The notes beneath the pieces were generated by a model. That model saw only the letters and a list, made by a program, of their open reading frames with translations, was not told the origin of the DNA and made no database searches. From the sequence record PQ671644.1: a stretch of 64,000 nucleotides of DNA, one strand, 5' to 3'. Position 1 is the first letter of the stretch; each line of letters begins with the position of its first letter. Made by a program: the position numbers and the translations under genes. Source of the stretch: Escherichia phage DCP80. Shown piece after piece: positions 7,308 to 61,082 of this stretch.

Positions 7308-7322
7308 NNNNNNNNNNNNNNN

Positions 7323-7405
7323 TTCCCGGTCGCATTATCTTTAAAAATTCTATCAAGAAGTCCAAAAAGTAGGTCTGATAATGAAAATCCTACTTTTGGT
7401 TCCAT
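7323..7405 (-). CDS. t: Holin t, first 27 codons (cut by N-run)
   Basis: MEPKVGFSLSDLLFGLLDRIFKDNATG resembles T4 holin T N-terminus; lies downstream of gene 38 as in T4. Confidence 0.7.
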
Positions 7406-7441
7406 ACTTTTCTCCTTTAAAGATATTTATAATATGGGGTA

Positions 7442-8242
7442 TTATACTCTGCTTCCGTATATCGTACCAACGTTTTGCCAGTTAGGAGCATTACCGGCGA
7501 CTGCTGCCCCAGCATTACCACCAGCACCAACTTTAAGCACTTTACCTCCATCATTCCAAGCGTTTTGGCCTTTAGCACCGACATTCCCACCAGCACCTGA
7601 ATGCGCGTTACCATAATTATAACCACCACCTGCTCCGGTAAGAGATGCCGCCCCACCGGAGTATCCTCCGCCACCAGCTGCACCAAATGGTCTACCGCCG
7701 CCAGCGCCTATATCTTGCCAGTTAGCACCTGAATGGGGTCTATACGCGATGCCACCACCACCGCCACCACCACCGGCTATAGCGCCATTATTACGGATAC
7801 GAAGTTTAGTTCCGGCATTGTTTTGTATGGCTATTCCGCCGGCCTCACCATTACCATTGCCGTCGCTATGGGTCCAGCCTCCTCGGCCTCCTCGACCATA
7901 AACGGTAACACCGCTATTAATATTAAGTTGTATATAAGCATTAGGTAAGTTGCTAGGGAATTCCAGACATGGGTTTCCGCGGTTGTTAGATACCAAGTCA
8001 CCAGTAATTGTAATAACAACAGGCGCACTGCCTTGTGCTCTCATCCAGTTTATAAGGGTGTTTTTATCATAGTTATGATTAGCCCCTATAGATAAGTAAA
8101 TTTCTTTTGATTGGTTAGCCATCGAACCCATCCAACCCGGGACAGCTACACGAACATCTCGCATTGCTGCATCCATCCAACGTTGGCCAGTTTCGTCAAC
8201 TGCAGATTGTCCGACCCAACCAGGTAATCCTACAATTGCCAT
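7442..8242 (-). CDS. 38: gp38 tail-fibre adhesin, T2-type with glycine-rich loops
   Basis: 266 aa; N-terminus MAIVGLPGWVG...QRWM typical of T2-type gp38; several poly-Gly stretches including eight consecutive Gly. Confidence 0.8.
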   Translation of the reverse strand: MAIVGLPGWVGQSAVDETGQRWMDAAMRDVRVAVPGWMGSMANQSKEIYLSIGANHNYDKNTLINWMRAQGSAPVVITITGDLVSNNRGNPCLEFPSNLPNAYIQLNINSGVTVYGRGGRGGWTHSDGNGNGEAGGIAIQNNAGTKLRIRNNGAIAGGGGGGGGIAYRPHSGANWQDIGAGGGRPFGAAGGGGYSGGAASLTGAGGGYNYGNAHSGAGGNVGAKGQNAWNDGGKVLKVGAGGNAGAAVAGNAPNWQNVGTIYGSRV

Positions 8243-8273
8243 AATAAATCCTTAGGGCCCGAAGGCCCTTTTC

Positions 8274-11200
8274 TTAATTTAATTTAGCTTCAAGTTCTCT
8301 AACTTTAGCCGACAGGGTTTTAACTGCTTCAATTAACAGAGCAACTTGTGCCTGAGTCGAAACTGTCAGAACCATATTTTCCTGCGAATCTAAAGACTCA
8401 TGCACCGCTTCAGGTAATACTTCTTTAAGATTCTGAGCAATAACACCTGCTTCAGTTTGAACCGCTTCACCACCGATATATTCAGCTTTATCATAGATTA
8501 AACCGTCGAGCTGTTCAACCTTTTCAAGAGCATTTTCAATAGGCCTGAAGTTTGATTTCAAACGAATGTCAGAACGAATATAAACGTTTGGAGCATTTAT
8601 ATTTTTATATGAGTACAAATCACCGTTTTGGAAACGGAAAGTCTGTACGCCATTCGCATATATGTCTAATAATCCATCGCCATTTTGCTTAATACCGGTA
8701 TCACTATCGCCAATTGTTATACTACTTCCACCGAGTGAGTTAGTTGTATTAACACCAAAGGCACTTGTTTGTGGCATCTGTACTTTACCCGGGCAATCTA
8801 AAATGCCATCCATTGTAAATCGCCATCTTGCTTGTTGGCCGTTAGCGTTATCTCCGCGAATACGAATAATACCTTCTCGCCAACCAGCTGTGGTACCAGA
8901 GCCGACCCATCCAAATTCAAAGGTTTGACGATATCCAGAGGAACCATAGTTGCTGTATGCACCTACAATAGGATAATAACTACCTGAATTAGATAAATCA
9001 CCATGGTCTGCCATAAAGGTGATTTTAGATTTCATTGTATCTGAGGTATCTCCCCAACCAGAGGCACCGCGCCAACCTGCAACCACACGAGACGAGATAT
9101 TGCCTAAACTAGTATTACCACTGGTGACATTAAGGCCGCCCGCCACGTTCAGACCACCACCAGTAATATTCAGACCACTGCCCATGCCTACACGACCATC
9201 AGCCATGTTGATAGAGAAAGGTCTTAAGCCATTCCACAACCCGTCAGTTGCATTCGGGTTTTCTTCCGTGTTTTTATCCGTAACTAAAATATGAAAATTT
9301 TCACCGTCGTTTCTAATCAAAGCGGCATTAGAACCTATATCATTACCGCTGGATTTGATACGCATACCTTTTTGGTTATTGGTAACGTATTCACCACGTG
9401 TAACAATATCCGATTCGCCGGCAGCAAACATTCCGTCAATGTTGTTCAGCATTCTTACAGATTTACCTACAACATGACCTTCAGGTAATGTTTCTACCAA
9501 AGGCTGGACACCGCTATTAATACCCACTACGGTTACTTTACTATTGCTACTGCATGTATATTCTACCGCCAAAGAATTAGAATACCCACCTAAGTAAACG
9601 TAAATATCATAGGTATCTTCGCTTGTATTAACAGAAGCAATCTGAGAAATAGCTTCAGAAGTTCTATTCCACAGCGTAGCATTAAGGCCTTTAGGGTTAT
9701 TATTGCCGGTTCTAAGGACTATTTCGGCTATTGAAGCCTGACCATAACTTTTAAAATTAAATCCAGAACCACCTGATATTTTAAAGGATGCTGTACCCGT
9801 CGCTTGTGGAATTTCTACAGTAGCAAATTTATACCAACCTGTAGTAGCGCCGCCAGCCCAACCGCCTGTGTTAACTTTACGGTCTAACGTTGTGTTCAGG
9901 TTTTTAAAGTTATCTAATGCAGTGCTGCCTGTAATATTACCGTCAGGACCAATACGAACATCGGAACCAATTTTAAGTGCCTTGGTTATATCAACAGTAT
10001 CAGAGTTTAATGCAATACCATGGGAGTATGTATAGTTATGTAAACGAACAACGTTGCCGCCGTCGCCAATACCGAGATACCATTTTGTAACATCTGCTTT
10101 ACGTCCTTGGATAAAGTTGGATGATGCCTGGGATGAAGCATTTACCACAATGGCATCAGAATCCATATTAACACGCAGTCTACAGTCGGTCTGGACAAAT
10201 TTACTTACGTTGTCTACTGTAAAAAGTGGACCATACCCGGCACTTTTATTCCCCATTATAACCGTGCCGGTGGCTAAATTGATAGATAGCGGACGAAGGT
10301 CACTTATTCCACCATTTTCTCCAGCGTTCTGAAGAGTAGGAATAAGATGGAATGAAGCAGAAGAACCTGTTTCTGAACGACGGAAAATCATACCATATTC
10401 GGCATTCCAAATTCTTAATGCATCAGCGGTACCGCCTATTTTAACTTGACCGTTAAAAGTGGCGCCACCATTTATATTCAATCCGTTTGCTGAAGTGATA
10501 CTACCTTCCGATGAAATACTACCAGCAGTAGTCAATCCACCATTTACACGGAATTGAATAGAACCTACGGTTTGGGAACTTGTGGGAGCAACGCGTTGTG
10601 AATAAAAATGCCAACCCTGTCCATCGCCTAATTCAAATACAGTTTCTCTGCTTTTATTAGTGTCATCCTCAAATGCGTTACCCCATACTTTCATGGTCAC
10701 ATAGCTTTTGTTCTGACCCGGGCGGGTGCCTGCGTTCCAAACAATCGTTTTTGTGCCATTGATAGTGGAAGAAGCGCCGAACTTTATACCTTTATTGTTG
10801 TTGTTAGTATTAAAAAATAATTCGTTATCTAATTTAACTGGTTGGGTCGAGGAAACTGTGCCATCGGCTCTAAGATTCAGTTCATTAACCCCGGTTTTAA
10901 TATTCAAAATACCTGGTTCAATAATCATGCCTTCTGCCATAGAAATGGCTACACGACCTGTACCACGGAAATAATGATAAAGTTTACCATTAGAATTATA
11001 ACCTAAATGGGTTTGGCCATCCCCAGAGTTATTACCGTCTATTTCGGTTCTAATAGAAACCATAGAAGAGTTCTGGCCAGGCAGAAGCCAAGTAAGACCT
11101 TGGTCATTACTACGGCCAAATATGGTTTTACTAGTCCCACGGAAGCCGTCGGAAGTAATAGATGCAACGGAATAACCTCCACCAACTAAATCATAAACAC

Positions 11201-12027
11201 CTTGCTTAATATATTTCAGACCGGTTACAGTGTCACCGAGAACAAGATACTTATCGCCCATTACACCGACGTTACCATAATCACTAGACGGGAAACCCGT
11301 AGTGAATGTACCTAATGCAAGGCTATTACGGCCTGCCATTCGTCCGTCATTACGAATGCCATATTGTTTAGATGATGGAGTATTACCTGTCCACCATGAC
11401 ATTTCATCAGCTTGACCTGTCTGGGCGGTGCAAAGCTCATGCCACATAGTGCCACCAGACTTGGCGCGAACTTTACGAAGATAGTTTACACCATTCGTTT
11501 CGCCTGTGCCTGGGTATACATAATTAACTAATGAATCTGTATCATATACACCAAAGGCTTTGCCACCGTGGATAACTGTATCGACTGCAATGCGTTTAGT
11601 TACTAATGAATCTGATGCTAAAATACGGTTGGCCTGAAATTCACCACCATTTATAGAACGGAAATAGAATTCACTATTAGCAGTACCTTCTGTCCCCTGT
11701 TTAATCCTAATGCGTAATTCACCAGCATTTGTAGTTTGAGGACGTGCATATATAACACCGCGTTCACTGCCATCAGCATTTTCAAACCATAAATGGGCAT
11801 TTGATGTTGTATCGTTTGAAGCTCTTGAATAAAACGAGCCTTGCAACGCTCTAAAAGTTTGAGCCGAAATACTAGTGCCTGCTGTAATCGACCCGCTTGT
11901 AGAAAAGTTTCCAAAATTGTTTAATGGGCCGTTAATGCGTAAAGTTCCATTAATAGTTACATCCCCGTCAACCTGCCCACCTTTAGCAAAGCCCAAATCA
12001 ATAATCTGTCCCTGGTCTGACTTAGTN
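8274..12027 (-). CDS. 37: Long tail fibre distal subunit gp37, T2-type with C-terminal chaperone-like domain; N-terminus lost at N-run
   Basis: More than 1250 aa; N-terminal half near-identical to T4 gp37; C-terminus carries SDIRLKSNF motif and coiled-coil tail instead of the T4 His-box tip. Confidence 0.9.
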
Positions 12028-12062
12028 NNNNNNNNNNNNNNNNNNNNNNNNNNNNNNNNNNN

Positions 12063-12246
12063 GCGGAAAGGGGGTGTTATGAAAACATTCAAAGATTTTA
12101 TCAACGAAGATATGGTTGCAGGTGATGCAGGTGGAAACCCAACTAATATCACAACAGGTACCACTTCCGGGGCAGTTGTCAATAAAGGCCCTGAACAAAT
12201 CCCATCAAAAAAGCGTAAGAACAAAGACGATAAACCTACAGTATAA
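12063..12246 (+). CDS. 3' end of an ORF emerging from the N-run (possibly gene 41 C-terminus by synteny)
   Basis: Open frame from the gap ending ...PSKKRKNKDDKPTV; immediately upstream of gene 61. Confidence 0.3.
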
Positions 12247-12278
12247 TGGTCCTTCGGGGCCATTGAAATGAGGAAACT

Positions 12279-13307
12279 ATGTCATATATTGATAAAGAAT
12301 TTGCAGTCAGAGCTTTATCGTATCAACCACGTTATAGAGAAGTCACCGGGAGCACATTTAAAGCAAACTGCAGATGTAAAGTTTGTGGCGACTCCCAGAA
12401 AGATTCACATAAAGCCAGATTCTGGGCGTATACTAATCCGGCTGATGGCGCGGTTTACGTGAAATGTTTTAACTGTGACTACTCCACGCATATAAGCAAA
12501 TACATAAAAGAGTTTGAGCCGGATTTGCACCGGGAATATATGGTTGAGAAGTACAAGGAGAACGCCTTCGGGCGACAACGCACTGAAGTTGTCGAAACTC
12601 CGAAAGAACCAGAAAAAACTCCGGTTATCGAACAGCTTGCTTTTTGTGAAAGACTCGATACTTTACCAGAAGCACATCCGATAGTTAAGTATGTAAAAAG
12701 TCGATGTATTCCAAGCAATGTTTGGAACCGGTTATGGTTTACAAACCAATGGCCCGCATTAGTTAACTCCGTCAATCCTGGGACGTATAAGAATGAAACG
12801 AATGAACCACGCTTGGTTATTCCTATCTTCAACGGCAAAAAAGAAATCGAATCTTTCCAAGGACGAGCTCTTCGCAAAGATGCACCACAAAAATATATCA
12901 CAATCAAAGCTCACCCAGAAGCTTCCAAAGTCTATGGCGTAGACAAGATTGATGAGCGTAAACGCGTATGGGTAATGGAAGGTCCAATTGATAGTTTGTT
13001 TATCCCTAACAGCATTGCGATAACTGGTGGCACATTGTCATTGGAAGCAGTTCCTTATGCTGAAACCAGAGTATGGGTAATGGACAACGAGCCAAGACAT
13101 CCGGATACGATTAAACGTATGAAGAAGCTCGTTGAAGCTGGCGAAGCTGTTATGTTCTGGGACAATGCACCATGGCATACGAAAGACATAAATGAGATGG
13201 TTAAATCAGAAGGGGCAACCCCTGAACAAATCGAATCATATATGGCCGATAACGTTGCTCAAGGATTGATGGCGAGAATGCGACTTTCGAAGTACGCAAA
13301 AGTTTAG
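12279..13307 (+). CDS. 61: DNA primase gp61
   Basis: 342 aa; zinc ribbon CRCKVCGDS...CFNC and toprim region near-identical to T4 gp61. Confidence 0.92.
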   Translation: MSYIDKEFAVRALSYQPRYREVTGSTFKANCRCKVCGDSQKDSHKARFWAYTNPADGAVYVKCFNCDYSTHISKYIKEFEPDLHREYMVEKYKENAFGRQRTEVVETPKEPEKTPVIEQLAFCERLDTLPEAHPIVKYVKSRCIPSNVWNRLWFTNQWPALVNSVNPGTYKNETNEPRLVIPIFNGKKEIESFQGRALRKDAPQKYITIKAHPEASKVYGVDKIDERKRVWVMEGPIDSLFIPNSIAITGGTLSLEAVPYAETRVWVMDNEPRHPDTIKRMKKLVEAGEAVMFWDNAPWHTKDINEMVKSEGATPEQIESYMADNVAQGLMARMRLSKYAKV

Positions 13308-13363
13308 GAAGGGATTCCGGTAAAGTAACCGATGATGGAATGAATATGTTCTATTGTGACCTG

Positions 13364-13385
13364 GGGTAAGTGCACCCCTTGTGTT
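13364..13385 (+). terminator. Stem-loop terminator candidate downstream of gene 61
   Basis: GGGGT-AAGTGC-ACCCC hairpin followed by TTGTGTTG. Confidence 0.4.
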
Positions 13386-13415
13386 GCAGCGATAGGCACA
13401 ACCAGTAAGTTCCAC

Positions 13416-13613
13416 CTATATAAGGCCGATTAATGCTAGTGAAACATCTACAACTGATTCGAGCGCGACGACTGGCAATATAACACCATGTGCCAATGCA
13501 ATAGGGGCAACAATGAAATTCCAGAGTAGAACAAAACAGAGTATCGAAAGGACCAGAATCGTTCGCTTACGACTGCCTTTGATGGCTTGAATTAGACTAG
13601 ATAGTTTGAGCAT
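13416..13613 (-). CDS. Small hydrophobic membrane protein, opposite strand
   Basis: 65 aa, two predicted TM segments, AAAGGAGGA RBS; conserved in the second copy of this block. Confidence 0.45.
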   Translation of the reverse strand: MLKLSSLIQAIKGSRKRTILVLSILCFVLLWNFIVAPIALAHGVILPVVALESVVDVSLALIGLI

Positions 13614-13697
13614 ACATCCTCCTTTCTTGTATTTATGCTTTAAACCAATATGATATAATTAACATACAAACAATATGAATTGATAAGGAAAAATATA

Positions 13698-14216
13698 ATG
13701 GCTCATTTTAACGAGTGTTCTCAACTGATTGCTGGTGTTGATAAAGCGCAAGATGCGTATAATGATGTCCTAAAAGGCAATGATGACCCTCTGCAGATTA
13801 TGCTTGATATGCAGAAATCTTTGCAGGTTCGTCTGGCTACAGAAAAACCAGAATATAACGCACATCCAGATGAATTGGCAACCGCAGGCGATGTTGTTGC
13901 ATGGCTTCGTAACCAGAAAGATTATGTCGACGACGAATTCCGTGAACTTCTGACTTCGCTCGGTGGCATGTCTAATGGTGAGAAAGCCGCATCCAGTTGC
14001 TGGAAGCCGTGGAAAGCGCAACATGCTGAATATCGTAATCGTCGTATTGATGAACTGTCTCCTGAAGACCAGCTCGAAATTAAATTCGAAATGATTGATA
14101 TTCTGCACTTCGTTCTGAATATGTTTCAAGGTCTGGGTCTTTCTGCTGAAGAAATCTTTAAACTGTATTACTTGAAAAATGCCGAGAACTTTGCTCGCCA
14201 AGACCGAGGTTATTAA
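13698..14216 (+). CDS. 56: dCTP pyrophosphatase gp56
   Basis: MAHFNECSQLIAGVDKAQ...EEIFKLYYLKNAENFARQDRGY, near-identical to T4 gp56; ORF-track start 13680 is an upstream TTG. Confidence 0.9.
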   Translation: MAHFNECSQLIAGVDKAQDAYNDVLKGNDDPLQIMLDMQKSLQVRLATEKPEYNAHPDELATAGDVVAWLRNQKDYVDDEFRELLTSLGGMSNGEKAASSCWKPWKAQHAEYRNRRIDELSPEDQLEIKFEMIDILHFVLNMFQGLGLSAEEIFKLYYLKNAENFARQDRGY

Positions 14217-14497
14217 TGGCTCGTTTAAATAAACGTCAACTTAAGAAAGCTCGTAAGAAGCATATTAATGCTATAATTGAAAACGCTAATGTTGAAATCT
14301 TTGTAGAACTCTTAGCCAATCAACTAAAAAATTTATCTAAACAAGAAATTGATATGAATACTGAAAATGCTAAAAATGTAATCGAAACTCATAATGTTTT
14401 TGCTCAAGCTACAGCCGAATACATTGCCAATCCTACTGCTGAAAATCTAGCTAAAATGACTGAAGCCAATAAAGCAGTCCAAGCCGCCAAATTGTAA
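14216..14497 (+). CDS. Hypothetical protein
   Basis: 93-aa ORF coupled to gene 56 stop (ATGA overlap), Lys-rich N-terminus. Confidence 0.5.
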   Translation: MARLNKRQLKKARKKHINAIIENANVEIFVELLANQLKNLSKQEIDMNTENAKNVIETHNVFAQATAEYIANPTAENLAKMTEANKAVQAAKL

Positions 14498-14499
14498 GT

Positions 14500-14507
14500 T
14501 ATAAATA
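14500..14507 (+). promoter_or_regulatory. T4 late promoter box TATAAATA upstream of soc
   Basis: Exact TATAAATA about 30 nt upstream of soc start. Confidence 0.6.
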
Positions 14508-14538
14508 CACCTGTAATTAAACAACAAAGGAGTTTATT

Positions 14539-14772
14539 ATGGGTGGTTTCGTTAATATCAAAACCTTCACGCATCCAGCTGGTGAAGGTAAAGAAGTTAA
14601 AGGCGTTGAAGTATCAGTTCCGTTTGAAATCTATTCGAACGAGCACCGTATTGCTGATGCGCACTATCAGACTTTCCCTTCGGCCGTTGCAGCATATACT
14701 ACTGTAGTGACTGATGCAGCCGATTGGCGAACTAAGAACGCGGCAATGTTTACGCCTACCCCAGTAGTTTAA
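14539..14772 (+). CDS. soc: Small outer capsid protein Soc
   Basis: 77 aa; GFVNIKTF...AHYQTFPS... resembles T4 Soc; late promoter upstream. Confidence 0.8.
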   Translation: MGGFVNIKTFTHPAGEGKEVKGVEVSVPFEIYSNEHRIADAHYQTFPSAVAAYTTVVTDAADWRTKNAAMFTPTPVV

Positions 14773-14777
14773 TTATA

Positions 14778-14802
14778 GGGAACCTTCGGGTTCCCTTTTT
14801 TG
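14778..14802 (+). terminator. Rho-independent terminator
   Basis: GGGAACC-TTCG-GGTTCCC hairpin followed by TTTTTTG. Confidence 0.7.
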
Positions 14803-14849
14803 CTTTTAATAGAGATGGTATAATTATTTCAACTACAGAGGAGAATACT

Positions 14850-15047
14850 ATGTTAAACCGTTGGATTAAACCAAATAAAACTTTAGATGAAGTTATTGCC
14901 CATGATGTGCATTTTAAGTATGGTCTGGGTGTGTTTGACGAGGTTGTCGTGCACTCGTTCATGATGCACGATGATGATTCTTTAGAATTCAATATTGAAA
15001 TCCGTTATGATGATGGTCAAGTTGAATTTAAACGAGGTTTCCTATGA
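14850..15047 (+). CDS. Hypothetical protein
   Basis: 65-aa ORF with GAGGAGAA RBS. Confidence 0.5.
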   Translation: MLNRWIKPNKTLDEVIAHDVHFKYGLGVFDEVVVHSFMMHDDDSLEFNIEIRYDDGQVEFKRGFL

Positions 15048-15403
15048 TTAGTTGGCTCAAGAATTTATTCAAGACTAAACCTGGTGAAGGGGTGGTTCCT
15101 GTTAGCCTGCCAGATGTTAAACTAAGAGAATATGTTTACATGGGCGATGGTATGATGGAAGAAGTTCGTCGCCGCCCAGAAAAAGCCGGTAATGTCGGAC
15201 CAGGCGCATTGCCATTGAATTCGAAAAAGTTAAAAGAGCATCTGGATTCAAGACGTTCTACAAGCCATGTCGATACTACACCGCATATTGATATGACTCC
15301 GATTGTGGTTACTGCGGCCGCTGTCAGTTCGTGGACTGGTGATTCGTCTTATTCCTCCTATGATTCAGGAAGCTGCGATTCATCTTCCAGCTCGTGTGAT
15401 TAA
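15044..15403 (+). CDS. Hypothetical protein with Ser/Cys-rich C-terminus
   Basis: 119-aa ORF, start overlaps upstream stop; C-terminus SYDSGSCDSSSSSCD. Confidence 0.5.
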   Translation: MISWLKNLFKTKPGEGVVPVSLPDVKLREYVYMGDGMMEEVRRRPEKAGNVGPGALPLNSKKLKEHLDSRRSTSHVDTTPHIDMTPIVVTAAAVSSWTGDSSYSSYDSGSCDSSSSSCD

Positions 15404-15598
15404 ATGAGAATTACAAGTTGGCTTAAAGATTGGTTGGTTACCCCGGGGATTGATGATTCCTGGGTGGCCAGAGCCGAGGAAGAAATGCAGCGCGAAGCTG
15501 AAGAATGGGCCGCCGCAAGCGTCAAAGATATGCAGGAAAAGAAGACCGAACGAGCTGTGCTTAAACTGATGCGTGATATCTACGGAGATAAATCATGA
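15404..15598 (+). CDS. Hypothetical protein
   Basis: 64-aa ORF, identical protein in second copy at 44193-44387. Confidence 0.5.
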
Positions 15599-15744
15599 CA
15601 CAAGAAGAAGCTGAACGTCAGGCAAAAGAAGCACTGGATTTGCTTTTGAAAATTGGCAGTAAAATGATGGAAGAAAATGAAAAGTACATCAAGGAAAATA
15701 AAGTTCCTGATGGTCCATTAGTTGGTAAGAGGAAAACATTATGA
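15595..15744 (+). CDS. Hypothetical small protein
   Basis: 49-aa ORF with ATGA overlaps at both ends. Confidence 0.35.
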
Positions 15745-16229
15745 AAGTATATGAATTAGAATTCTATGTCCGTGATTCTGCTGGGCAAACACGACCTTAC
15801 GATGCAACAGCCTGTCTTATCTTTGCATATAATGGCATGGATTCGGTTACTGAGTTGGAAACAAAATTAATGAACCTGACGATGCCAGAAAATGTCATGA
15901 TGAAGGTATTTCATAACAAAAACGTTAATGTGGCTGAAGGGTGTCCGTTTACTGTTTCCGAAGCTCTACACATTAAAGGCTATCGTCACCCGGACCCTTA
16001 TGCAGAAGGTACTGCGGATATCTTCTATAAAGATACCGATAGAATTTCAGAAGAACGCCTTAAAGGTCGCACATATCTGATTTCCACTACCGACGACCTT
16101 GCTGAAGTTGAACGTCAGATTTGGAAGCACTTTGATATCGGTCTGCGCTTTACTTTAACAGAAGAAGCTATTCAAGATACTAAAATGCGTGCTCGTATGT
16201 ATGGTTACGGTCCGATTGGTGGTTACTAA
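15741..16229 (+). CDS. Hypothetical protein
   Basis: 162-aa ORF, RBS AGGAAAA. Confidence 0.55.
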
Positions 16230-16405
16230 TGGATTTATTTGAACTTTTTGAAGAGCCTAAAGCTCCCACAGAAGCCCGTGTGGACCTAGTTGACGAACTT
16301 GATGCGATTATACAGAAGCACGGTTTTAGTCTCCCATTGGAAGTTCTGCGCGACCTGGCCTCATATTACGACGACCCACCTCCATGGGCACCATGGAAAC
16401 AGTAG
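16229..16405 (+). CDS. Hypothetical small acidic protein
   Basis: 58-aa ORF overlapping upstream stop. Confidence 0.4.
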   Translation: MDLFELFEEPKAPTEARVDLVDELDAIIQKHGFSLPLEVLRDLASYYDDPPPWAPWKQ

Positions 16406-16562
16406 TTTACTTACTCCCCTCCTAATGACATAATGACCTTTCTTACAACAGAGAGGTCATTATGAACATCATCAAATCTGATACCGAACCCAACCAGTTA
16501 AAATTTAGTGAAATGGAGATAGCTTCANNNNNNNNNNNNNNNNNNNNNNNNNNNNNNNNNNN

Positions 16563-24921: not shown

Positions 24922-24962
24922 NNNNNNNNNNNNNNNNNNNNNNNNNNNNNNNNNNNNNNNNN

Positions 24963-25045
24963 TTCCCGGTCGCATTATCTTTAAAAATTCTATCAAGAAG
25001 TCCAAAAAGTAGGTCTGATAATGAAAATCCTACTTTTGGTTCCAT
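24963..25045 (-). CDS. t: Holin t, first 27 codons (cut by N-run); identical to copy at 7323-7405
   Basis: Same MEPKVGFSLSDLLFGLLDRIFKDNATG; located downstream of T4-type gene 38. Confidence 0.7.
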
Positions 25046-25085
25046 ACTTTTCTCCTTTAAAGATATTTATAATGCTTTTGCGCTA

Positions 25086-25631
25086 CTATTTTTTAAACCA
25101 TCTTTTGAAGAATGATTTTTTCTCTTTTTCTGGCCAAGCCGGGAATTCACCACCGAGGTGTTCGTGTTTTTCTAAAAGAGCAAAGAAACGTTTAAGATTC
25201 TGGTGATAGAATTTTTCTTTCTTATCGGCGACTGAGGCTTCAACCATATTACTTAATACCTGGAATTCTTTATACAAATCGTCAATTTTTCGATTGCGAA
25301 TCATTACTCGTTTATATGTTTCATCTTCTTTCCAGCCATCATCTGTCCATATATCAAACTCGCCAGGTTTATCGAAAGTTATACCGACTGGGCTTCCTAT
25401 GTCATTTATTAAGATTTCTTCTTTATTAAAAGTCCATGCACGTTTGCCTCGATGGTCTTCTTCATAAATCCAATCTTGAATGCGTTCGTCAAATACAACG
25501 GCATACCCTTCTTTAGGTTCTAAAGGTTTTTTAGCTGTTGAATGGGCCGGAAGGCCAAGGCCTTTAATGGGTTTATAATTTTCTTCTTTGTAGAATTCTT
25601 TTGTGTCAAAATAAAAATGATAAATTTTCAT
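25086..25631 (-). CDS. 38: gp38, T4-type tail fibre assembly chaperone
   Basis: MKIYHFYFDTKEFYKEENYKP...HLGGEFPAWPEKE near-identical to T4 gp38 (183 aa); ORF-track start is an upstream TTG. Confidence 0.9.
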   Translation of the reverse strand: MKIYHFYFDTKEFYKEENYKPIKGLGLPAHSTAKKPLEPKEGYAVVFDERIQDWIYEEDHRGKRAWTFNKEEILINDIGSPVGITFDKPGEFDIWTDDGWKEDETYKRVMIRNRKIDDLYKEFQVLSNMVEASVADKKEKFYHQNLKRFFALLEKHEHLGGEFPAWPEKEKKSFFKRWFKK

Positions 25632-25658
25632 ATTCAAAAGGGGCCGAAGCCCCTCTCC

Positions 25659-28600
25659 TTATGCTAAACGAACGATATAGTTAAAAGCAATGTTTTTAAC
25701 CGTGTTTTCTGTATTACCTGTACTATTTACGGTAATGGTATGCCCATGTGAACCAATCGCTACAGTATGAGTGTGAGCACCGATACCTACCGTATGCGTG
25801 TGAGCACCAATACCTACAGTATGAGCGTGGTTACCTGTGGCACTTGTGGTCCCTGACCAACTATGAGTATGAGCACCGTCTGAAGAAGTTTTGGCTATAT
25901 TCGACCCTGCAGTAGCACCGCTCACGGTTCCAGTGATTTTAGCGTTGGCGTTTGCACCTACACTATTATATCCGTCATAGAATATGTTATTGGGTACGCC
26001 GGCTTGCATCTGAGGGCCTGAACGCGCGTGTTGGTGTGCTCCGGCTGAACTGGTAGTACCACTCACTGTATGGTTATGGTTACCGGTGGTATTACTGGTC
26101 TTAGTACCATAATCAAAGCTTGAAGATGTTTTAGTGCCATAATCAAAGCTTGATGTGGTTTTAGTACCCAAGTCAGTACTCGAAGCAGATGCGCCATGGT
26201 TATGAGACTTAATACCATCAGCTTCTGCACTCAACACTGCGCGGCCACTTGGTTTACCCTTGATAGTTTGTCCACGCATATCAGGAATAGTACCAGAAGG
26301 ATATGCAACAGCAAGCTTAGGATAAGCACCTGTATCAAAGGTCTGACCTTCCATCAAAGCATAACCATTAGGAGGAGTATCCGTTGGCCATGGAATTGGG
26401 GCTCCAATAGGATAACTTGAAACAATATCAGTTTTAAGTGATTCAATTGTACTGTTTAAGTTAGCAAAGTTACCAGAGCCACCGGTGATATTACCATCAG
26501 TTCCTAAAGTTGTGTTGCCTACAATAATTTTACCAGGTAAGCGGAAGTCACCGGTGCGGCGGAATTCCCAACTTAAATCAGTTCCGGTAGTACTATTGCC
26601 CTGGTGATAATGAACGCGGAAGTCTCCTTGAGAAATTAAGGTGCCAATAGAATAAGTGCTATCACCATTTACATACCGTTGTTTAACAATAGGAATGTAT
26701 TCAGAAGTAGCAGTACGCTCTATATTCATATAAATTGGAGCCCTGACATCTGCGTAATTCTGAGATGCAAACGAACCAGCTCCTGCTGGGCGTACCGTAT
26801 CAGTACATTCGGCCTCAATATATGTCGACTGCCCCAATTTCATTCTAAAATTGGCATTAATGCGAGAGTTACTGTTTATCGTAGTTAAAGCATTATTTTG
26901 ATCTACTATAAAAGAATCTCTTCCTAATCCAACCATACCATCGTTTAATCCTATTCTCACAGGTCTCAAAGAGCTGTGAATGTCTCCACTTTCGCCTTCA
27001 TTTTGATTGGTTGGAAGAATATAAAAGTTACTTTCTGAACGACGGAAAATAGCGCCATATTCAGCATTCCAAATTCTTAATGCATCTGCTGTTCCACCAA
27101 TTTTTACTTGTCCGGTAATAGAAGAACCACCTTGGACAAACAAACCGTTAGACATAGTAACATTGCCACCAAAAGAACCTGTACCGGAGGCACTTATATT
27201 TCCAAGGCCTATGATATGGTCTGTTTCAACAGCTCCGTTAAATTTAAAGTTAACTGGACCTACTGTTTGACCTGACGCAGGATTAGTACGTTGAGCGTAG
27301 AAATAATAACCTTGTGAATCTGAAACTTCGAATACAGTTTCTCTATTACCGCCACCTGTATTAAATGAATTACCCCACGCTTTAATAGATATATAGTTTT
27401 TATTCTGTCCTGCGCGAGTACCAGCGCCCCACAGTATAGTTTTAGTGCCATCTAATGATGTAGGTGCATCAAGTTGAATACCGTCAGCTCTAGCCCCGGT
27501 AAGAAGTACCCCGTTATCAAATTTAATTCTTTGAATAGAAGAAATAGTGCCGTCAGCATAAAGCTGTACATTATTAGCGCCGGTTACCAGTTTAAGAATA
27601 CCTGGGTTAAGTTCCATGCCTTCTTGGGTGTTAATATTGGTTTGACCTCTACCGCGGAAATAGTGCGACATTTTTCCGCCAGAGTTATAACCAATATGCG
27701 TCTGACCATCGCCAGCTGTATTCCCGTCAGCCTGAGTTTGAGCTGATAAAAATGCAGCATTGGTTCCAGGCATAATCCATGTGGTGCCTTGGTCTTCTGA
27801 ACGACCAAATAAACCTTTACGAGTACTACGGAAACTATCTGGAGTAATAGAAGCAACTGAATTCCCTGAACCAACTAAATCATAAACACCGGTTTTTTTG
27901 TATGACAGCCCCGTCCCGTTATCGCCTAGAGCTAAATAAACACCGAATCCTAAAGCGGCACCATTACCATAGTCGCTTGACGGGTATCCTTCAGTCACAG
28001 TACCAATGGCCAAGCTATTGCGAACAATCATTCTGCCGTCATTACGAATACCATATAGTTTATATGTTGGTGTATTACCAGACCACCAAGAAACCTCATC
28101 AGCTTGGCCTAATTGGGCCGTACAAATTTCATGATACATTGTACCACCAGACTTGGCGCGAACTTTACGAAGATAGTTTACACCATTCGTTTCGCCTGTG
28201 CCTGGGTATGTATATTTAACTAATGAATCAGTGTCATATACACCAAATGCTTTGGCATCGTGAATAACTGTATCAGCTGCAATGCGTTTTGTTAATAACG
28301 CATCCGAAGCTAAAATACGGTTAGCCTGAAATTCACCGCCGTTTATAGAACGGAAATAGAATTCACTATTAGCAGTGCCTTCTGTCCCCTGTTTAAGCCT
28401 AATGCGTAATTCACCAGCATTTGTAGTTTGAGGGCGAGTATATATAACACCACGTTCAGTGCCATCGGCATTTTCAAACCAAAGGTGGGCATTTGACGTA
28501 TCGTTTGTTGCTCTTGAATAAAACGAACCCTGTAATGCTCTAAAAGTTTGAGCCGAAATACTCGTGCCTGCTGTAATCGACCCGCTTGTGGAAAAGTTTC

Positions 28601-28832
28601 CAAAATTGTTTAATGGGCCATTAATGCGTAAAGTTCCAGTAATAGTTACATCGCCATCAACTTGTCCACCTTTTGCAAAGCCCAAATCAATAATCTGTCC
28701 CTGGTCGGACTTGGTAAAAATAGTGCGGTCACGCAAGTTAATAGCCAGTTCGCCTTCATCTAACTGAGCTGCAGTAGGCTTGGCTCCTGGTGTTTTACTT
28801 CTTTTAAATTGTATCGATTTTAAAGTAGCCAT
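25659..28832 (-). CDS. 37: Long tail fibre distal subunit gp37, T4-type with His-box tip
   Basis: 1057 aa; N-terminus [13 protein letters not shown] and C-terminus [47 protein letters not shown] as in T4 gp37. Confidence 0.95.
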
Positions 28833-28840
28833 AATGCCTC

Positions 28841-29045
28841 TTAATAATATCCAAAATCTTCAGATGTACCTCTAAGAACAACCTGGTCAATACGAGGAAC
28901 GTGTTCGTTCAATGTTCCTGGGTTCCTAGATATGAAATTCGGGGCTGAAAGAACACCAGCCATAGATTGTATGTTACTATTATTTATTTGGACCTGTTTT
29001 GCGTTATCCACATCACTTAATCCAACTTGTGCTTTTGTCGGGGTA
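28841..29045 (-). CDS. 36: Tail fibre subunit gp36, C-terminal part (cut by N-run)
   Basis: Frame open from gap, stop adjacent to gene 37 start as in T4 36-37. Confidence 0.65.
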
Positions 29046-29102
29046 NNNNNNNNNNNNNNNNNNNNNNNNNNNNNNNNNNNNNNNNNNNNNNNNNNNNNNN
29101 NN

Positions 29103-33152: not shown

Positions 33153-33268
33153 NNNNNNNNNNNNNNNNNNNNNNNNNNNNNNCAGTAAACTATTCCTGCA
33201 TAATGATGACCCCGGAGATTTGAAACTTTGATGTCACGGTCTGACACATTGAAATGCTTAATCATAAT

Positions 33269-36927: not shown

Positions 36928-37134
36928 TCTCCTGTAATATTTTTCTCATACTACGCATGGTAGCTTTATGTTCTTGGTCATGGTATATCAATGCNNNNNN
37001 NNNNNNNNNNNNNNNNNNNNNNGACTATAAATTATGGAATCTTTCCGTTCTTTCTTACTGAAGTATTCTGGGTTAACAAAAGGCCAAAGACCTTAGAACC
37101 ATTATACACAGTAAAAATAAAAGCGTTAAAGGCA

Positions 37135-40718: not shown

Positions 40719-40743
40719 NNNNNNNNNNNNNNNNNNNNNNNNT

Positions 40744-44126: not shown

Positions 44127-44192
44127 NNNNNNNNNNNNNNNNNNNNNNNNNNNNNNNNNNNNCTTTTGCCTGACGTTCAGCTTCTTCTTGTG

Positions 44193-44387
44193 TCATGATT
44201 TATCTCCGTAGATATCACGCATCAGTTTAAGCACAGCTCGTTCGGTCTTCTTTTCCTGCATATCTTTGACGCTGGCGGCGGCCCATTCTTCAGCTTCGCG
44301 CTGCATTTCTTCCTCGGCTCTGGCTACCCAGGAATCATCAATCCCTGGAGTAACCAACCAATCTTTAAGCCAACTTGTAATTCTCAT
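44193..44387 (-). CDS. Hypothetical protein (second copy of 15404-15598)
   Basis: Identical 64-aa protein. Confidence 0.5.
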   Translation of the reverse strand: MRITSWLKDWLVTPGIDDSWVARAEEEMQREAEEWAAASVKDMQEKKTERAVLKLMRDIYGDKS

Positions 44388-44744
44388 TTAATCACACGAG
44401 CTGGAAGACGAATCGCAGCTTCCTGAATCATAGGAGGAATAAGACGAATCACCAGTCCACGAACTGACGGCAGCAGCGACTACAATCGGAGTCATATCAA
44501 TATGCGGTGTAGTATCGACATGGCTTGTAGAACGTCTTGAATCCAGATGCTCTTTTAACTTTTTCGAATTCAATGGCAATGCACCTGGTCCGACATTACC
44601 GGCTTTTTCTGGTCGGCGACGAACTTCTTCCATCATACCATCGCCCATGTAAACATATTCTCTTAGCTTGACATCTGGTAGGCTAACAGGAACCACGCCC
44701 TCGTTTGGTTTGGTCTTGAATAAATTCTTGAGCCAACTAATCAT
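44388..44744 (-). CDS. Hypothetical Ser/Cys-rich protein (second copy of 15044-15403)
   Basis: 118 aa, one substitution and one residue shorter than first copy. Confidence 0.5.
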   Translation of the reverse strand: MISWLKNLFKTKPNEGVVPVSLPDVKLREYVYMGDGMMEEVRRRPEKAGNVGPGALPLNSKKLKEHLDSRRSTSHVDTTPHIDMTPIVVAAAVSSWTGDSSYSSYDSGSCDSSSSSCD

Positions 44745-44938
44745 AGGAAACCTCGTTTAAATTCAACTTGACCATCATCATAACGGATTTCAATATTGAA
44801 TTCTAAAGAATCATCATCGTGCATCATGAACGAGTGCACGACAACCTCATCAAACACACCCAGACCATACTTAAAATGTACATCATGGGCAATAACTTCG
44901 TCTAAAGTTTTGTTCGGTTTAATCCAACGGTTTAACAT
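44741..44938 (-). CDS. Hypothetical protein (second copy of 14850-15047)
   Basis: Identical 65-aa protein. Confidence 0.5.
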   Translation of the reverse strand: MLNRWIKPNKTLDEVIAHDVHFKYGLGVFDEVVVHSFMMHDDDSLEFNIEIRYDDGQVEFKRGFL

Positions 44939-45014
44939 AGTATTCTCCTCTGTAGTTGAGATAATTATACCATCTCTATTAAAAGCAAAAAGGGAACCCG
45001 AAGGTTCCCTATAA

Positions 45015-45248
45015 TTAAACTACTGGGGTAGGCGTAAACATCGCCGCGTTCTTAGTTCGCCAATCGGCTGCATCAGTCACTACAGTAGTATAGGCTGCAA
45101 CGGCCGAAGGGAAAGTCTGATAATGAGCATCCGCAATACGGTGCTCGTTTGAATAGATTTCAAACGGAACAGATACTTCAACACCTTTAACTTCTTTACC
45201 TTCACCAGCTGGATGCGTAAAGGTTTTGATATTAACGAAACCACCCAT
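45015..45248 (-). CDS. soc: Small outer capsid protein Soc (second copy)
   Basis: Identical 77-aa protein; late box at 45280-45287 on the minus strand. Confidence 0.8.
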   Translation of the reverse strand: MGGFVNIKTFTHPAGEGKEVKGVEVSVPFEIYSNEHRIADAHYQTFPSAVAAYTTVVTDAADWRTKNAAMFTPTPVV

Positions 45249-45289
45249 AATAAACTCCTTTGTTGTTTAATTACAGGTGTATTTATAAC

Positions 45290-45571
45290 TTACAATTTGG
45301 CGGCTTGGACTGCTTTATTGGCTTCAGTCATTTTAGCTAGATTTTCAGCAGTAGGATTGGCAATGTATTCGGCTGTAGCTTTAGCAAAAACATTATGAGT
45401 TTCGATTACATTTTTAGCATTTTCAATATTCATATCAATTTCTTGTTTAGATAAATTTTTTAGTTGATTGGCTAAGAGTTCTACAAAGATTTCAACATTA
45501 GCGTTTTCAATTATATCATTAATATGCTTCTTACGAGCTTTCTTAAGCTGACGTTTATTTAAACGAGGCAT
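45290..45571 (-). CDS. Hypothetical protein (second copy of 14216-14497)
   Basis: 93 aa with 4 substitutions relative to first copy. Confidence 0.5.
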   Translation of the reverse strand: MPRLNKRQLKKARKKHINDIIENANVEIFVELLANQLKNLSKQEIDMNIENAKNVIETHNVFAKATAEYIANPTAENLAKMTEANKAVQAAKL

Positions 45572-46089
45572 TAATAACCTCGGTCCTGACGAGCAAAGTT
45601 CTCGGCATTTTTCAGGTAATACAGTTTAAAGATTTCTTCTGCTGTCAGACCAAGACCATGGAACATGTTCAGAACGAAATGGAGAATATCAATCATTTCG
45701 AATTTAATTTCGAGCTGGTCTTCAGGAGAGAGTTCGTCAATACGACGGTTACGGAATTCGCCATGTTGAGCTTTCCAAGGCTTCCAACAACTTGATGCAG
45801 CTTTCTCGCCATTAGACATACCACCGAGAGAAGTCAGAAGTTCACGGAATTCGTCGTCAACATAATCTTTCTGGTTGCGAAGCCATGCAACAACATCGCC
45901 TGCGGTTGCCAATTCATCTGGATGTGCGTTATATTCTGGTTTTTCTGTAGCCAGACGAACCTGCAAAGATTTCTGCATATCAAGCATAATCTGCAGAGGG
46001 TCATCATTGCCTTTTAGGACATCATTATACGCATCTTGCGCTTTATCAACACCAGCAATCAGTTGAGAACACTCGTTAAAATGAGCCAT
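45571..46089 (-). CDS. 56: dCTP pyrophosphatase gp56 (second copy)
   Basis: About 4 substitutions relative to first copy; start at MAHFNEC. Confidence 0.9.
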   Translation of the reverse strand: MAHFNECSQLIAGVDKAQDAYNDVLKGNDDPLQIMLDMQKSLQVRLATEKPEYNAHPDELATAGDVVAWLRNQKDYVDDEFRELLTSLGGMSNGEKAASSCWKPWKAQHGEFRNRRIDELSPEDQLEIKFEMIDILHFVLNMFHGLGLTAEEIFKLYYLKNAENFARQDRGY

Positions 46090-46173
46090 TATATTTTTCC
46101 TTATCAATTCATGTTGTTTGTATGTTAATTATATCATATTGGTTTAAAGCATAAATACAAGAAAGGAGGATGT

Positions 46174-46371
46174 ATGCTCAAACTATCTAGTCTAATTCAA
46201 GCCATCAAAGGCAGTCGTAAGCGAACGATTCTGGTCCTTTCGATACTCTGTTTTGTTCTACTCTGGAATTTCATTGTTGTCCCTATTGCATTGGCACATG
46301 GTGTTATATTGCCAGTCGTCGCGCTCGAATCAGTTGTAGATGTTTCACTAGCATTAATCGGCCTTATATAG
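46174..46371 (+). CDS. Small hydrophobic membrane protein (second copy)
   Basis: 65 aa, one substitution (A to V) relative to 13416-13613. Confidence 0.45.
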   Translation: MLKLSSLIQAIKGSRKRTILVLSILCFVLLWNFIVVPIALAHGVILPVVALESVVDVSLALIGLI

Positions 46372-46479
46372 GTGGAACTTACTGGTTGTGCCTATCGCTG
46401 CAACACAAGGGGTGCACTTACCCCAGGTCACAATGGAACATATTCATTCCATCATCGGTTACTTTACCGGAATCCCTTC

Positions 46480-47508
46480 CTAAACTTTTGCGTACTTCGA
46501 AAGTCGCATTCTCGCCATCAATCCTTGAGCAACGTTATCGGCCATATATGATTCGATTTGTTCAGGGGTTGCCCCTTCTGATTTAACCATCTCATTTATG
46601 TCTTTCGTATGCCATGGTGCATTGTCCCAGAACATAACAGCTTCGCCCGCTTCAACGAGCTTCTTCATACGTTTAATCGTATCTTTATGTCGCGGTTCAT
46701 GGTCCATCACCCATACTCTGGTTTCTGGATAAGGAACAGCTTCCAATGCCAATGTGCCACCGGTTATCGCAATGCTGTTAGGGATAAACAAACTATCAAT
46801 TGGACCTTCCATTACCCATACGCGTTTACGCTCATCAATCTTGTCTACGCCATAGACTTTGGAAGCTTCTGGGTGAGCTTTGATTGTGATATATTTTTGT
46901 GGTGCATCTTTGCGAAGAGCTCGTCCTTGGAAAGATTCGATTTCTTTTTTGCCGTTGAAGATAGGAATAACCAAGCGTGGTTCATTCGTTTCATTCTTAT
47001 ACGTCCCAGGATTGACGGAGTTAACTAATGCAGGCCATTTGTTTGTAAACCATAACCGGTTCCAAACATTGCTAGGAATACACCGACTTTTTACATACTT
47101 AATTATCGGATGTGCTTCTGGTAAAGTATCGAGTCTTTCACAAAAAGCAAGCTGCTCGATAACCGGAGTTTTTTCTGGTTCTTTCGGAGTTTCTGCAACT
47201 TCATTGCGCTGTCTGCCAAAGGCATTCTCCTTATACTTCTCAACCATATATTCCCGGTGTAAATCCGGCTCAAACTCTTTTATGTATTTGCTTATATGCG
47301 TGGAGTAGTCACAGTTAAAACATTTCACGTAAACCGCGCCATCAGACGGATTGGTATACGCCCAGAATCGAGCTTTATGTGAATCTTTCTGGGAGTCGCC
47401 ACAAACTTTACATCTGCAGTTTGCCTTAAATGTGCTCCCGGTGACTTCTCTATAACGTGGTTGATACGATAAAGCTCTGACTGCAAATTCTTTATCAATA
47501 TATGACAT
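46480..47508 (-). CDS. 61: DNA primase gp61 (second copy)
   Basis: 342 aa with about 10 substitutions relative to first copy. Confidence 0.92.
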   Translation of the reverse strand: MSYIDKEFAVRALSYQPRYREVTGSTFKANCRCKVCGDSQKDSHKARFWAYTNPSDGAVYVKCFNCDYSTHISKYIKEFEPDLHREYMVEKYKENAFGRQRNEVAETPKEPEKTPVIEQLAFCERLDTLPEAHPIIKYVKSRCIPSNVWNRLWFTNKWPALVNSVNPGTYKNETNEPRLVIPIFNGKKEIESFQGRALRKDAPQKYITIKAHPEASKVYGVDKIDERKRVWVMEGPIDSLFIPNSIAITGGTLALEAVPYPETRVWVMDHEPRHKDTIKRMKKLVEAGEAVMFWDNAPWHTKDINEMVKSEGATPEQIESYMADNVAQGLMARMRLSKYAKV

Positions 47509-47715
47509 AGTTTCCTCATTTCAATGGCCCCGAAGGNNNNNNNNNNNNNNNNNNNNNNNNNNNNNNNNNNNNNNNNNNNNNNAGCGGACGAACGTTTGGA
47601 ACGAGCTATCAAACAAGAAGCTATTGCCAAACGAGCATTGATGAAGTCTCTTTATCTCTGCCTTCATGTCATTAATGCGCTGGAAGCTATTCGGTTTTAT
47701 GTTTCATTTGCGTAA

Positions 47716-48045
47716 ATTGCGCCTTTAAGTGGTAACACTTATCGAAAACTCCTTTAATTGCTGGAAAATCCGGAAACGGAAAACTAGCAGCCAAGGTTTT
47801 GCTTGCGCCTTTAATTAGTATCATATTATAAATATGATTATACTTTTAAGAGGATGCACAATTGCAAAACAAGGTTCAACGACTAGTCTTCGGACGTAGG
47901 GCCAAGCGGCTCGAAATGGGGAGAATCCTTCTGGGATTGTGATATAGTCTGGTCTGCATGGTAACATGCAGCAGTTCATAAGAGAACGGGATAAGAAATA
48001 GCGAGCTTATTCGAACATAACGGTACATTTAATTTCCATAAGAAC
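47716..48045 (+). other. Group I self-splicing intron, 3' portion, interrupting nrdB
   Basis: Non-coding stretch with group I R element GGTTCAACGACTAGTC (47873-47888) and S element GATATAGTC (47941-47949) directly upstream of nrdB exon 2; in-frame stop at 47992. Confidence 0.7.
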
Positions 48046-48525
48046 ATGGAAATCATGGAAGGTAATGCGAAGATAATGAAGTTCATCGCCCGTGATGAAC
48101 AGCTCCACCTTAAGGGGACCCAATATATTCTTCGTCAGTTGCAGACTGGTACTGACGGTGACGAATGGGTTAAAATCGCACATGAATGTGAAGCAGAAGC
48201 CGCAGCCATTTTCATGGAAGTTAATCGCCAGGAAAAAGAATGGGCCGTGCATCTGTTTAAAGATGGTGGACTCCCCGGGCTGAGCGTCGAGATTCTTAAC
48301 CGGTTCATCGATTACCTGACGGTTTCTCGTATGAAGCAATGTGGTCTCCCGTGTGAAATCGTGTTAGAATCTACTAAGCACCCGATTCCATGGATTCGTG
48401 AATATCTTAACTCTGATAATGTGCAATCAGCACCACAAGAAGTTGAGTTGTCTGCTTACCTGGTAGCCCAGATTGACAATGACGTCGATGAGAATGTTCT
48501 TGCTGGTTTCCGTAAATATCTATAA
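48046..48525 (+). CDS. nrdB: Ribonucleotide reductase small subunit NrdB, exon 2 (exact 3' splice site uncertain by about 20 nt)
   Basis: EGNAKIMKFIARDEQLHLKGTQYIL...SDNVQSAPQEVE matches the C-terminal third of class Ia R2 proteins. Confidence 0.85.
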   Translation: MEIMEGNAKIMKFIARDEQLHLKGTQYILRQLQTGTDGDEWVKIAHECEAEAAAIFMEVNRQEKEWAVHLFKDGGLPGLSVEILNRFIDYLTVSRMKQCGLPCEIVLESTKHPIPWIREYLNSDNVQSAPQEVELSAYLVAQIDNDVDENVLAGFRKYL

Positions 48526-60910: not shown

Positions 60911-61082
60911 AGTTGTNNNNNNNNNNNNNNNNNNNNNNNNNNNNNNNNNNNNNNNNNNNNNNATATCTTGGATAGTCAGTACGATTTTATCGTCTTCTTG
61001 ACAAAGCTCAATTGCGTTATTAACTACTTCAGCGGTCAGTTCGCCAAACAATTCAGTTGTTTCAATAATCATTTTCTGTTCC

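Follow-up and report, generated by a model that had tools for sequence, protein, structure and literature searches.

Does the non-coding stretch that precedes the conserved region of nrdB in this phage DNA hold a self-splicing group I intron and, if so, where does it begin and end, does it carry its own homing endonuclease, and how did it reach its host lineage? We addressed these questions in a 64-kb stretch of DNA (64,000 nucleotides of Escherichia phage DCP80, record PQ671644.1), analysed as a whole and referred to here as the window. On comparison with related genes, positions 47714-48022 very probably constitute a functional member of the T-even nrdB family of self-splicing group I introns, located at the canonical nrdB site of an SP18-like (Gaprivervirus) phage. 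This high confidence applies to the joint reading, which takes in intron identity, splicing, endonuclease loss, non-autonomous spread and history.

Composition of the window

The window is T4-like phage DNA with 41% G+C and contains 15 N-runs, all ending at coordinates of the form 60k+2 (Table 1), a pattern that would arise if individual contigs were joined after padding to the FASTA line end. Pieces between the N-runs map to scattered SP18 positions in both orientations, and one region, SP18 13.7-17.2 kb (soc, gp56 dCTPase and gp61 primase), is represented twice, by 12063-16527 and, in opposite orientation, by 44163-47536 (96.6% identity). Thus, the window strings together separate contigs that derive from two or more related SP18-like phages. 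Because the N-runs are contig joints, gene neighbourhoods across them are not real, and the primase gene (46480-47508, - strand) was rejected as a neighbour of nrdB, since a joint lies at 47537-47582.

Elsewhere in the window, 24963-29045 and 7323-12026 share about 1.4 kb at only 75.6% identity, which may be due to a third phage, more distant than the others, or to paralogous genes. At 52219-52452 lies a three-gene tRNA cluster (Met-CAT, Asn-GTT and Arg-TCT) typical of the T4-like tRNA region.

Intron identity and boundaries

The first-pass annotation had placed group I intron core elements at 47716-48045 and proposed a covariance-model search as a check. That search, when run, returned a match above the gathering score: RF00028 (Intron_gpI) at 47688-47971 on the + strand, with 74.1 bits (gathering 50, E 5.9e-17) over the full model (1-253). 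It is the sole group I match in the 64-kb window, and this, together with its score, puts it far beyond chance. Alignment with the intron-less SP18 nrdB and with T4 nrdB sets the intron at 47714-48022 (+), 309 nt that follow U47713 and close with a terminal G48022; the Rfam match stops at P9 and the intron runs 51 nt further. An intron is thus present where it was first proposed, but the limits given for it were wrong: exon 2 starts at G48023, and the ATG at 48046 that had been taken as its beginning lies 23 nt too far downstream.

The intron interrupts nrdB at the codon used in T4 and RB3, with identical junctions (GCGU/AAA... and ...ACG/GUAC, the slash marking the splice site) in an alignment of the window, T4, CJY920 and SP18. 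The intron splits a Cys codon (U/GU) after ...SFA, and the spliced protein reads ...RFYVSFA/CTFNFHKNMEIMEGNAK or, in longer form, ...ALEAIRFYVSFA-C-TFNFHKNMEIMEGNAK.... As had been noticed at the outset, the exon-2 frame is shut off ahead of ...MEIMEGNAK by an in-frame stop, TAA at 47992-47994. The claim that a group I intron interrupts nrdB at the T-even site is borne out by the RF00028 match, by identity to the T4 intron (~92% outside the endonuclease gene) and by the finding that excision restores an SP18-type NrdB. Additionally, the 309-nt intron is 93% identical to the endonuclease-less intron of CJY920, and it aligns end to end with the introns of T4 (598 nt), HY03 (1096 nt) and RB3 (1091 nt) once their I-TevIII gene is left out. 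Core identity to T4, HY03, CJY920 and RB3 is 91-92%, and P7.1, P7.2, P9.1 and P9.2 are all kept. We take P7.1 and P7.2 to mark the subgroup IA architecture, where T4 introns are assigned.

The contig that carries the intron opens after the N-run at 47537-47582, and the first 545 nt of nrdB are absent from the window; no second nrdB fragment was found within the 64 kb. The visible part of exon 1 is identical at 131/131 nt to contig L011, whose exon 1 is complete (225 codons). The spliced product differs from the SP18 NrdB C-terminus at 2 of 210 visible residues and matches Pfam Ribonuc_red_sm (E 4.8e-15), and the genes after nrdB are denA and rnlA, ordered as in T4 and SP18. From the sister contigs described below, we infer that this genome has a complete nrdB and a MobE-like gene, the region upstream being outside the window. 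Further downstream, alc (inhibitor of host transcription) occupies two overlapping frames, 50166-50399 and 50311-50916, as do SP18 alcb/alca; either alc is split throughout this lineage or it needs a frameshift.

Table 1. Positions of contig joints, nrdB exons, predicted ribozyme helices, leader signals and exon polymorphisms in the window, and sources of sister contigs.
Feature	Position or source	Strand	Remarks
N-runs 1-5	2053-2102, 7308-7322, 12027-12062, 16528-16562, 24922-24962
N-runs 6-10	29046-29102, 33153-33182, 36995-37022, 40719-40742, 44127-44162
N-runs 11-15	47537-47582, 50945-51002, 54358-54362, 57668-57722, 60917-60962
nrdB exon 1, last 131 nt	47583..47713	+	aligns to SP18 nrdB nt 546-676
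Flank differences from intron-less relatives			0-based: -50, -44, -38, -35, -20, -11, -8, (-5), -2, +4, +7, +10; next at +116
Intron-linked exon polymorphisms	47694..48033	+	-20, -11, -8, -2, +5, +8, +11 (1-based), all synonymous
P1	47710..47722	+	exon GCGU 47710-47713 with internal guide GCGC 47719-47722; read from the sequence and the minimum-energy fold
P2 hairpin	47726..47741	+	UAAGUG/CACUUA, GUAA loop; compensatory changes in 3 of 6 pairs
P3, 5' strand	47749-47754	+
P4	47759-47764 with 47784-47789	+
P5	47769-47772 with 47777-47780	+	GAAA loop; compensatory G-C / A-U / U-A pair
P6, 5' strand	47790-47792	+
P6a stem	47796-47802 with 47864-47870	+	GUUUUGC with GCAAAAC; 61-nt loop, 47803-47863
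Late-promoter-like TATAAATA	47827-47834	+	P6a loop
Shine-Dalgarno AAGAGGA	47848-47854	+	P6a loop
Deletion junction ACAATTG	47858-47864	+	single copy
Former TTG start	47862-47864	+	inside ACAATTG
P6, 3' strand	47873-47875	+
P7, 5' strand, in element R	47881-47885	+	GACUA
P7.1	47886-47888 with 47893-47895	+	UUCG loop
P7.2	47899-47903 with 47908-47912	+	compensatory C-G / U-A pair
P3, 3' strand	47918-47923	+
P8	47924-47929 with 47933-47938	+
P7, 3' strand, in element S	47945-47949	+	UAGUC
P9	47954-47960 with 47965-47971	+	compensatory changes
P9.1	47974-47977 with 47984-47987	+
P9.2	47989-47995 with 48006-48012	+	compensatory changes
nrdB exon 2	48023..48525	+	GU of the Cys codon and 166 codons; stop 48523-48525
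Contig L011	ENA ERZ27235507 k119_2606		complete exon 1, 1085-nt intron with 269-aa HNH protein, exon 2
Contig L019	ENA ERZ28574880 scaffold_40, 169 kb		1085-nt endonuclease-bearing form; core identical to the window, 234/234 nt
Contig L020	Logan SRR20950995, 51 kb		309-nt endonuclease-less intron at 2669-2977; 2 compensatory differences in P5
Contig L021	Logan SRR28261678, 91 kb		309-nt endonuclease-less intron at 2669-2977; 4 compensatory differences in P2
Contig L022	ENA ERZ28614332 scaffold_67471, 67-1157		window-type 5' core, RB3-type endonuclease gene, T4-type 3' core

Ribozyme structure

The elements R (GGTTCAACGACTAGTC, 47873-47888) and S (GATATAGTC, 47941-47949), which the first reading had picked out from the letters alone, do pair as P7, GACUA with UAGUC. 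At the 5' end, U47713 pairs with G47719 in P1 as the splice-site wobble U.G. P1 consists of 4 bp only, and P10 of 1-2 bp at best. The G at exon position -2, which P1 needs, is present in all intron-containing alleles, and the intron-less Gaprivervirus alleles all have T or A there.

We examined covariation in an alignment of 7 distinct core variants, from which the P6a loop had been trimmed, scoring 69 modelled pairs in 13 helices (P2, P3, P4, P5, P6, P6a, the P7 pseudoknot, P7.1, P7.2, P8, P9, P9.1 and P9.2). Standard pairs fill every sequence-by-pair cell (482/482), and 11 pairs, in P2, P5, P6a, P7.2, P9 and P9.2, have compensatory double changes. When the 3' partners were slid by 1-3 columns as a control, pairing fell to 32-42% and no compensatory pairs remained. 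The alignment shows that the predicted core is intact and covarying; as the variants are close relatives (mean column identity 96%), this covariation is supportive and does not amount to independent proof. The minimum-energy fold of 47704-48030 recovers all helices, including P1, except the P7 pseudoknot (z = -3.5).

From this conservation and covariation among close relatives we infer splicing activity. The intron would be transcribed within the nrdB pre-mRNA and then fold into P1-P9.2. Exogenous guanosine would attack at the U.G pair of P1, directly after U47713, and exon 1 would next attack after G48022, the ligated mRNA giving intact NrdB (...SFA-C-TFNFHK...).

Loss of the endonuclease and the P6a remnant

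The P6a loop holds only the I-TevIII leader, and reading from the former TTG start gives at most 26 codons. With its own homing endonuclease (I-TevIII, HNH) absent from this loop, the intron is a non-autonomous derivative of a mobile intron. A hairpin in the leader pairs CCUUUAA with the Shine-Dalgarno sequence, and the arrangement of hairpin, late promoter and Shine-Dalgarno has been described for I-TevIII regulation (PMC2988022). The T4, HY03 and RB3 introns have two copies of ACAATTG at precisely the site of the window's junction, with the endonuclease gene between them; in such gene-bearing introns the gene starts at a TTG inside one copy and stops just past the second. The window has a single copy, the I-TevIII gene having been lost by clean deletion between the two repeats, with only the leader left.

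The middle 75 nt of the intron (47796-47870) are identical to CJY920 at 73/75 positions and ~68% identical to the cassette of L011. Exact-pattern searches for the endonuclease-less junction (GAGGATGCACAATTGCAAARCAAGGTTCAACGACTAGTC or shorter) gave no match in viral_contigs, genome_contigs or metagenome_contigs, and a search of viral_contigs for the R-element core likewise gave none.

Sister alleles

Sister contigs (Table 1) came to light solely by exact-protein searches with the exon-2 product (159 aa), whose 90% protein cluster contains full-length 392-aa NrdBs as well as many split products of 159 or 156 aa. In their flanks, L019, L020 and L021 are 93-98% identical to SP18. The first 82 nt and the last 152 nt of the window's intron match those of L011 without a difference (core 234/234), and the L011 P6a stem is AGUUUAC/GUAAACU, with compensating changes relative to GUUUUGC/GCAAAAC in the window. 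The 1085-nt form in L011 and L019 encodes a 269-aa HNH protein; that of L011 matches Pfam HNH_3 and is 75% identical to HY03 I-TevIII. L020 and L021 have a 3' core identical to that of the window and the same middle 75-nt segment, and the compensatory swaps that alone set them apart from it, P5 in L020 and P2 in L021, match the HY03/CJY920 versions.

Comparison of these alleles shows that the P6a/endonuclease cassette, and even single helices, have been exchanged among nrdB introns. The P6a and endonuclease cassette would thereby evolve as a module separate from the ribozyme core. The cassette exchange may have run in either direction: the endonuclease gene was lost when its cassette was replaced, or an intron without the gene acquired it.

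Exon flanks and intron acquisition

Isolate Gaprivervirus genomes (SP18, P896 and others) match the contig spanning 47583-50944 at 95-98% identity, each in two pieces that cover 91% of the query, and all of them thus lack ~300 nt. The intron was absent from all ~35 isolate Gaprivervirus genomes in a collection of 50,697 phage records. Two Logan contigs that encode an identical RnlA are also intron-less, and together with six intron-less isolates they formed the set for flank comparison.

Relative to this set, the window has 12 synonymous differences at third codon positions, clustered from -50 to +10, with a density of 16-20% inside the cluster versus ~2% outside (binomial P 1e-6 to 3e-9). Linkage of the whole tract from -50 to +10 to the intron was considered and dropped, because intron-less phages, too, are variable at sites -50 to -35, where VR26, for one, has the window's states. 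Thus, the intron-linked tract narrows to about -20..+11. Within it, -11T, -8A, -2G, +5A, +8T and +11T occur in all intron-containing Gaprivervirus-like contigs and in no intron-less ones, and G at -20 occurs in every intron-containing contig but L021. All seven markers are present in L011; L019 has the six from -11 to +11 and G at -20, with 5 mismatches to the window in the final 60 nt of exon 1. In the mosaic L022, each exon flank is of the same type as the intron half that it adjoins.

I-TevIII cuts at -14/-16 (PMC1865063), and the putative co-conversion tract spans this position. Co-conversion during acquisition would be the simplest reading of the flank markers. The intron and ~30 nt of flanking exon would have entered the lineage from an unsampled donor: no donor of the exon flank was found among the 50,697 phage records, where the best intron-containing match is HY03 at 87-89%, and the evidence for co-conversion is therefore correlative only. 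Selection on the exon-intron RNA context may be a partial cause of the markers, 5 of the 7 being unique to this lineage. Pairing through P10 or an extended P1 was not adopted as the basis of the unique exon changes, since P10 could be given no more than 1-2 bp and AAUUU at +9..+13 does not adjoin the splice site.

Without an endonuclease of its own, this intron could not home alone. It would persist and spread by recombination in mixed infections, with breaks made in trans. One plausible source of breaks would be the I-TevIII homologue of the L011/L019 allele, carried by sister introns in the same phage type; another would be a MobE-family endonuclease encoded just upstream of nrdB. MobE-family HNH/NUMOD genes that are 54% identical to T4 MobE lie between nrdA and nrdB in L020 (1268-1834) and L021 (1355-1996), and a gene of this family is also present in L011 at 2-352. 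Two versions occur, of 188 and 213 aa, of which the 188-aa form (L020) looks truncated compared with L011. L019 and isolates such as SP18 have no MobE-family gene between nrdA and nrdB.

Alternative explanations

The open frame upstream of the intron had been read at first as the tail of an I-TevIII-like endonuclease, in which case the intron would be longer and start upstream of the N-run. The frame is indeed open from the N-run to 47715, and T-even nrdB introns often carry such a gene. However, the translation of 47584-47715 (ADERLERAIKQEAIAKRALMKSLYLCLHVINALEAIRFYVSFA) corresponds to NrdB residues ~183-225, its 43 residues differing from SP18 at one position, and the 131 nt shared with L011 continue upstream in that contig into a complete exon 1. 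Moreover, the endonuclease gene of this family sits in the P6a loop, downstream of P6, and not 5' of P1. The probability that we assign to an endonuclease tail is practically negligible. A different concern is raised by the composite nature of the window, in which contigs from at least two related phages are joined and the intron-bearing contig opens just 131 nt upstream of the intron. A metagenome assembler could have stitched a Gaprivervirus endonuclease-bearing intron to an endonuclease-less Tequatrovirus one, and the pattern of cores 100% identical to L011 around a T4-like middle of 75 nt is what such a chimera would leave. Yet the 309-nt intron recurs, identical in its middle and in matching genomic context, in L020 and L021, two long contigs from unrelated runs, and this largely refutes the idea. 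Additionally, the stretch that L011-type and CJY920-type introns have in common to the left of P6a is 18 nt only. We regard an assembly chimera as extremely improbable.

The intron could also be an inactive relic that has lost splicing, leaving nrdB a pseudogene and ribonucleotide reduction to the host or to NrdD. Only part of nrdB is visible in the window, endonuclease loss is a degenerative stage of the homing cycle, and translation from the retained TTG at 47862 would read 26 codons into the core. Against this, all helices are intact, those differences from T4 that fall in helices being compensatory or G.U, and the same intron has been kept in several diverged genomes. The exons are under clear purifying selection, as the protein has 2 amino-acid differences from SP18 and the 12 flank changes are all synonymous. 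A relic is thus very unlikely, and a functional, non-autonomous intron remains the preferred reading.

Relation to known systems

The closest described relative of the window's intron is that of T4 and RB3 nrdB (Eddy & Gold 1991; Robbins et al. 2007, PMC1865063), with which it shares the gene, the site, helices P1-P9.2 and the leader. It differs in length, with 309 nt compared with the 598 nt of T4, whose endonuclease gene is truncated, and the 1091 nt of RB3, whose gene is intact; in its host, which is SP18-like (Gaprivervirus) and not a Tequatrovirus; and in its core, which has compensatory changes in P2, P5, P7.2 and P9.2. As the T4 nrdB intron is a textbook element, no new mechanism is added here.

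Endonuclease-less introns are also found in the Tequatroviruses CJY920 (PQ349265), BYEP01 (OR757453), SP21535 (PQ615101), PD112 and CE1. These have the same deletion junction, GGATGCACAATTGCAAA(A/G)C, are 300-309 nt long and are not annotated as introns; in the records of CJY920, BYEP01 and SP21535, nrdB is given as two fragments or left out. Their cores are ~92% identical to that of the window (216/234), whereas the exons are only ~82-83% identical, because the host genus differs. The endonuclease-bearing intron of L011 and L019 has the same core with an ATG start, a different leader and a different P6a stem. Additionally, a match to the 5' portion of the intron is present in the related Gelderlandvirus phage S16.

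The defunct nrdB intron of T4 is documented to home in trans through MobE (Wilson & Edgell 2009, PMC2790892). L020 and L021 would parallel this case and the collaborative homing of endonuclease-less introns, in that a non-autonomous nrdB intron lies close enough for recombination to a free-standing MobE-family HNH gene; the local MobE homologues are, however, 54% identical to that of T4, and the arrangement is known from the sister contigs and not from the window.

A 2010 review reported that the JS98 group is without homing endonuclease genes and found no convincing spread of intron endonucleases beyond the T-even cluster (PMC2993671), and our literature search found no paper linking Gaprivervirus with introns. 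The present findings extend the known host range of the nrdB intron to SP18-like phages, a genus with no earlier record of it. Additionally, annotation pipelines routinely report such genes as two nrdB fragments. Endonuclease-less, endonuclease-bearing and mosaic alleles with identical cores constitute a clean natural data set for studying how endonuclease genes are gained and lost, how introns home in trans and how short tracts of exon are co-converted.

Perhaps these alleles capture the homing cycle in progress, although we are evenly balanced on this proposal. In wild Gaprivervirus-like phages one core would circulate with two interchangeable P6a cassettes, an empty T4-type leader and an I-TevIII gene that is intact but diverged and brings along a compensating stem, and the cassette, not the intron, would be the mobile unit. 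Helices (P2 and P5) and exon flanks would also be shuffled between genera. If this is true, the intron is common in natural populations of a genus whose ~35 isolates all lack it.

In the Tequatrovirus records OR757453 (BYEP01), PQ615101 (SP21535), MF001354 (SG1) and PP328843, nrdB is annotated as two coding sequences, and the intron between them, endonuclease-less or degraded, is unannotated. The lengths of nrdB introns form a graded series of 300-309, 420, 591-598 and 1085-1096 nt.
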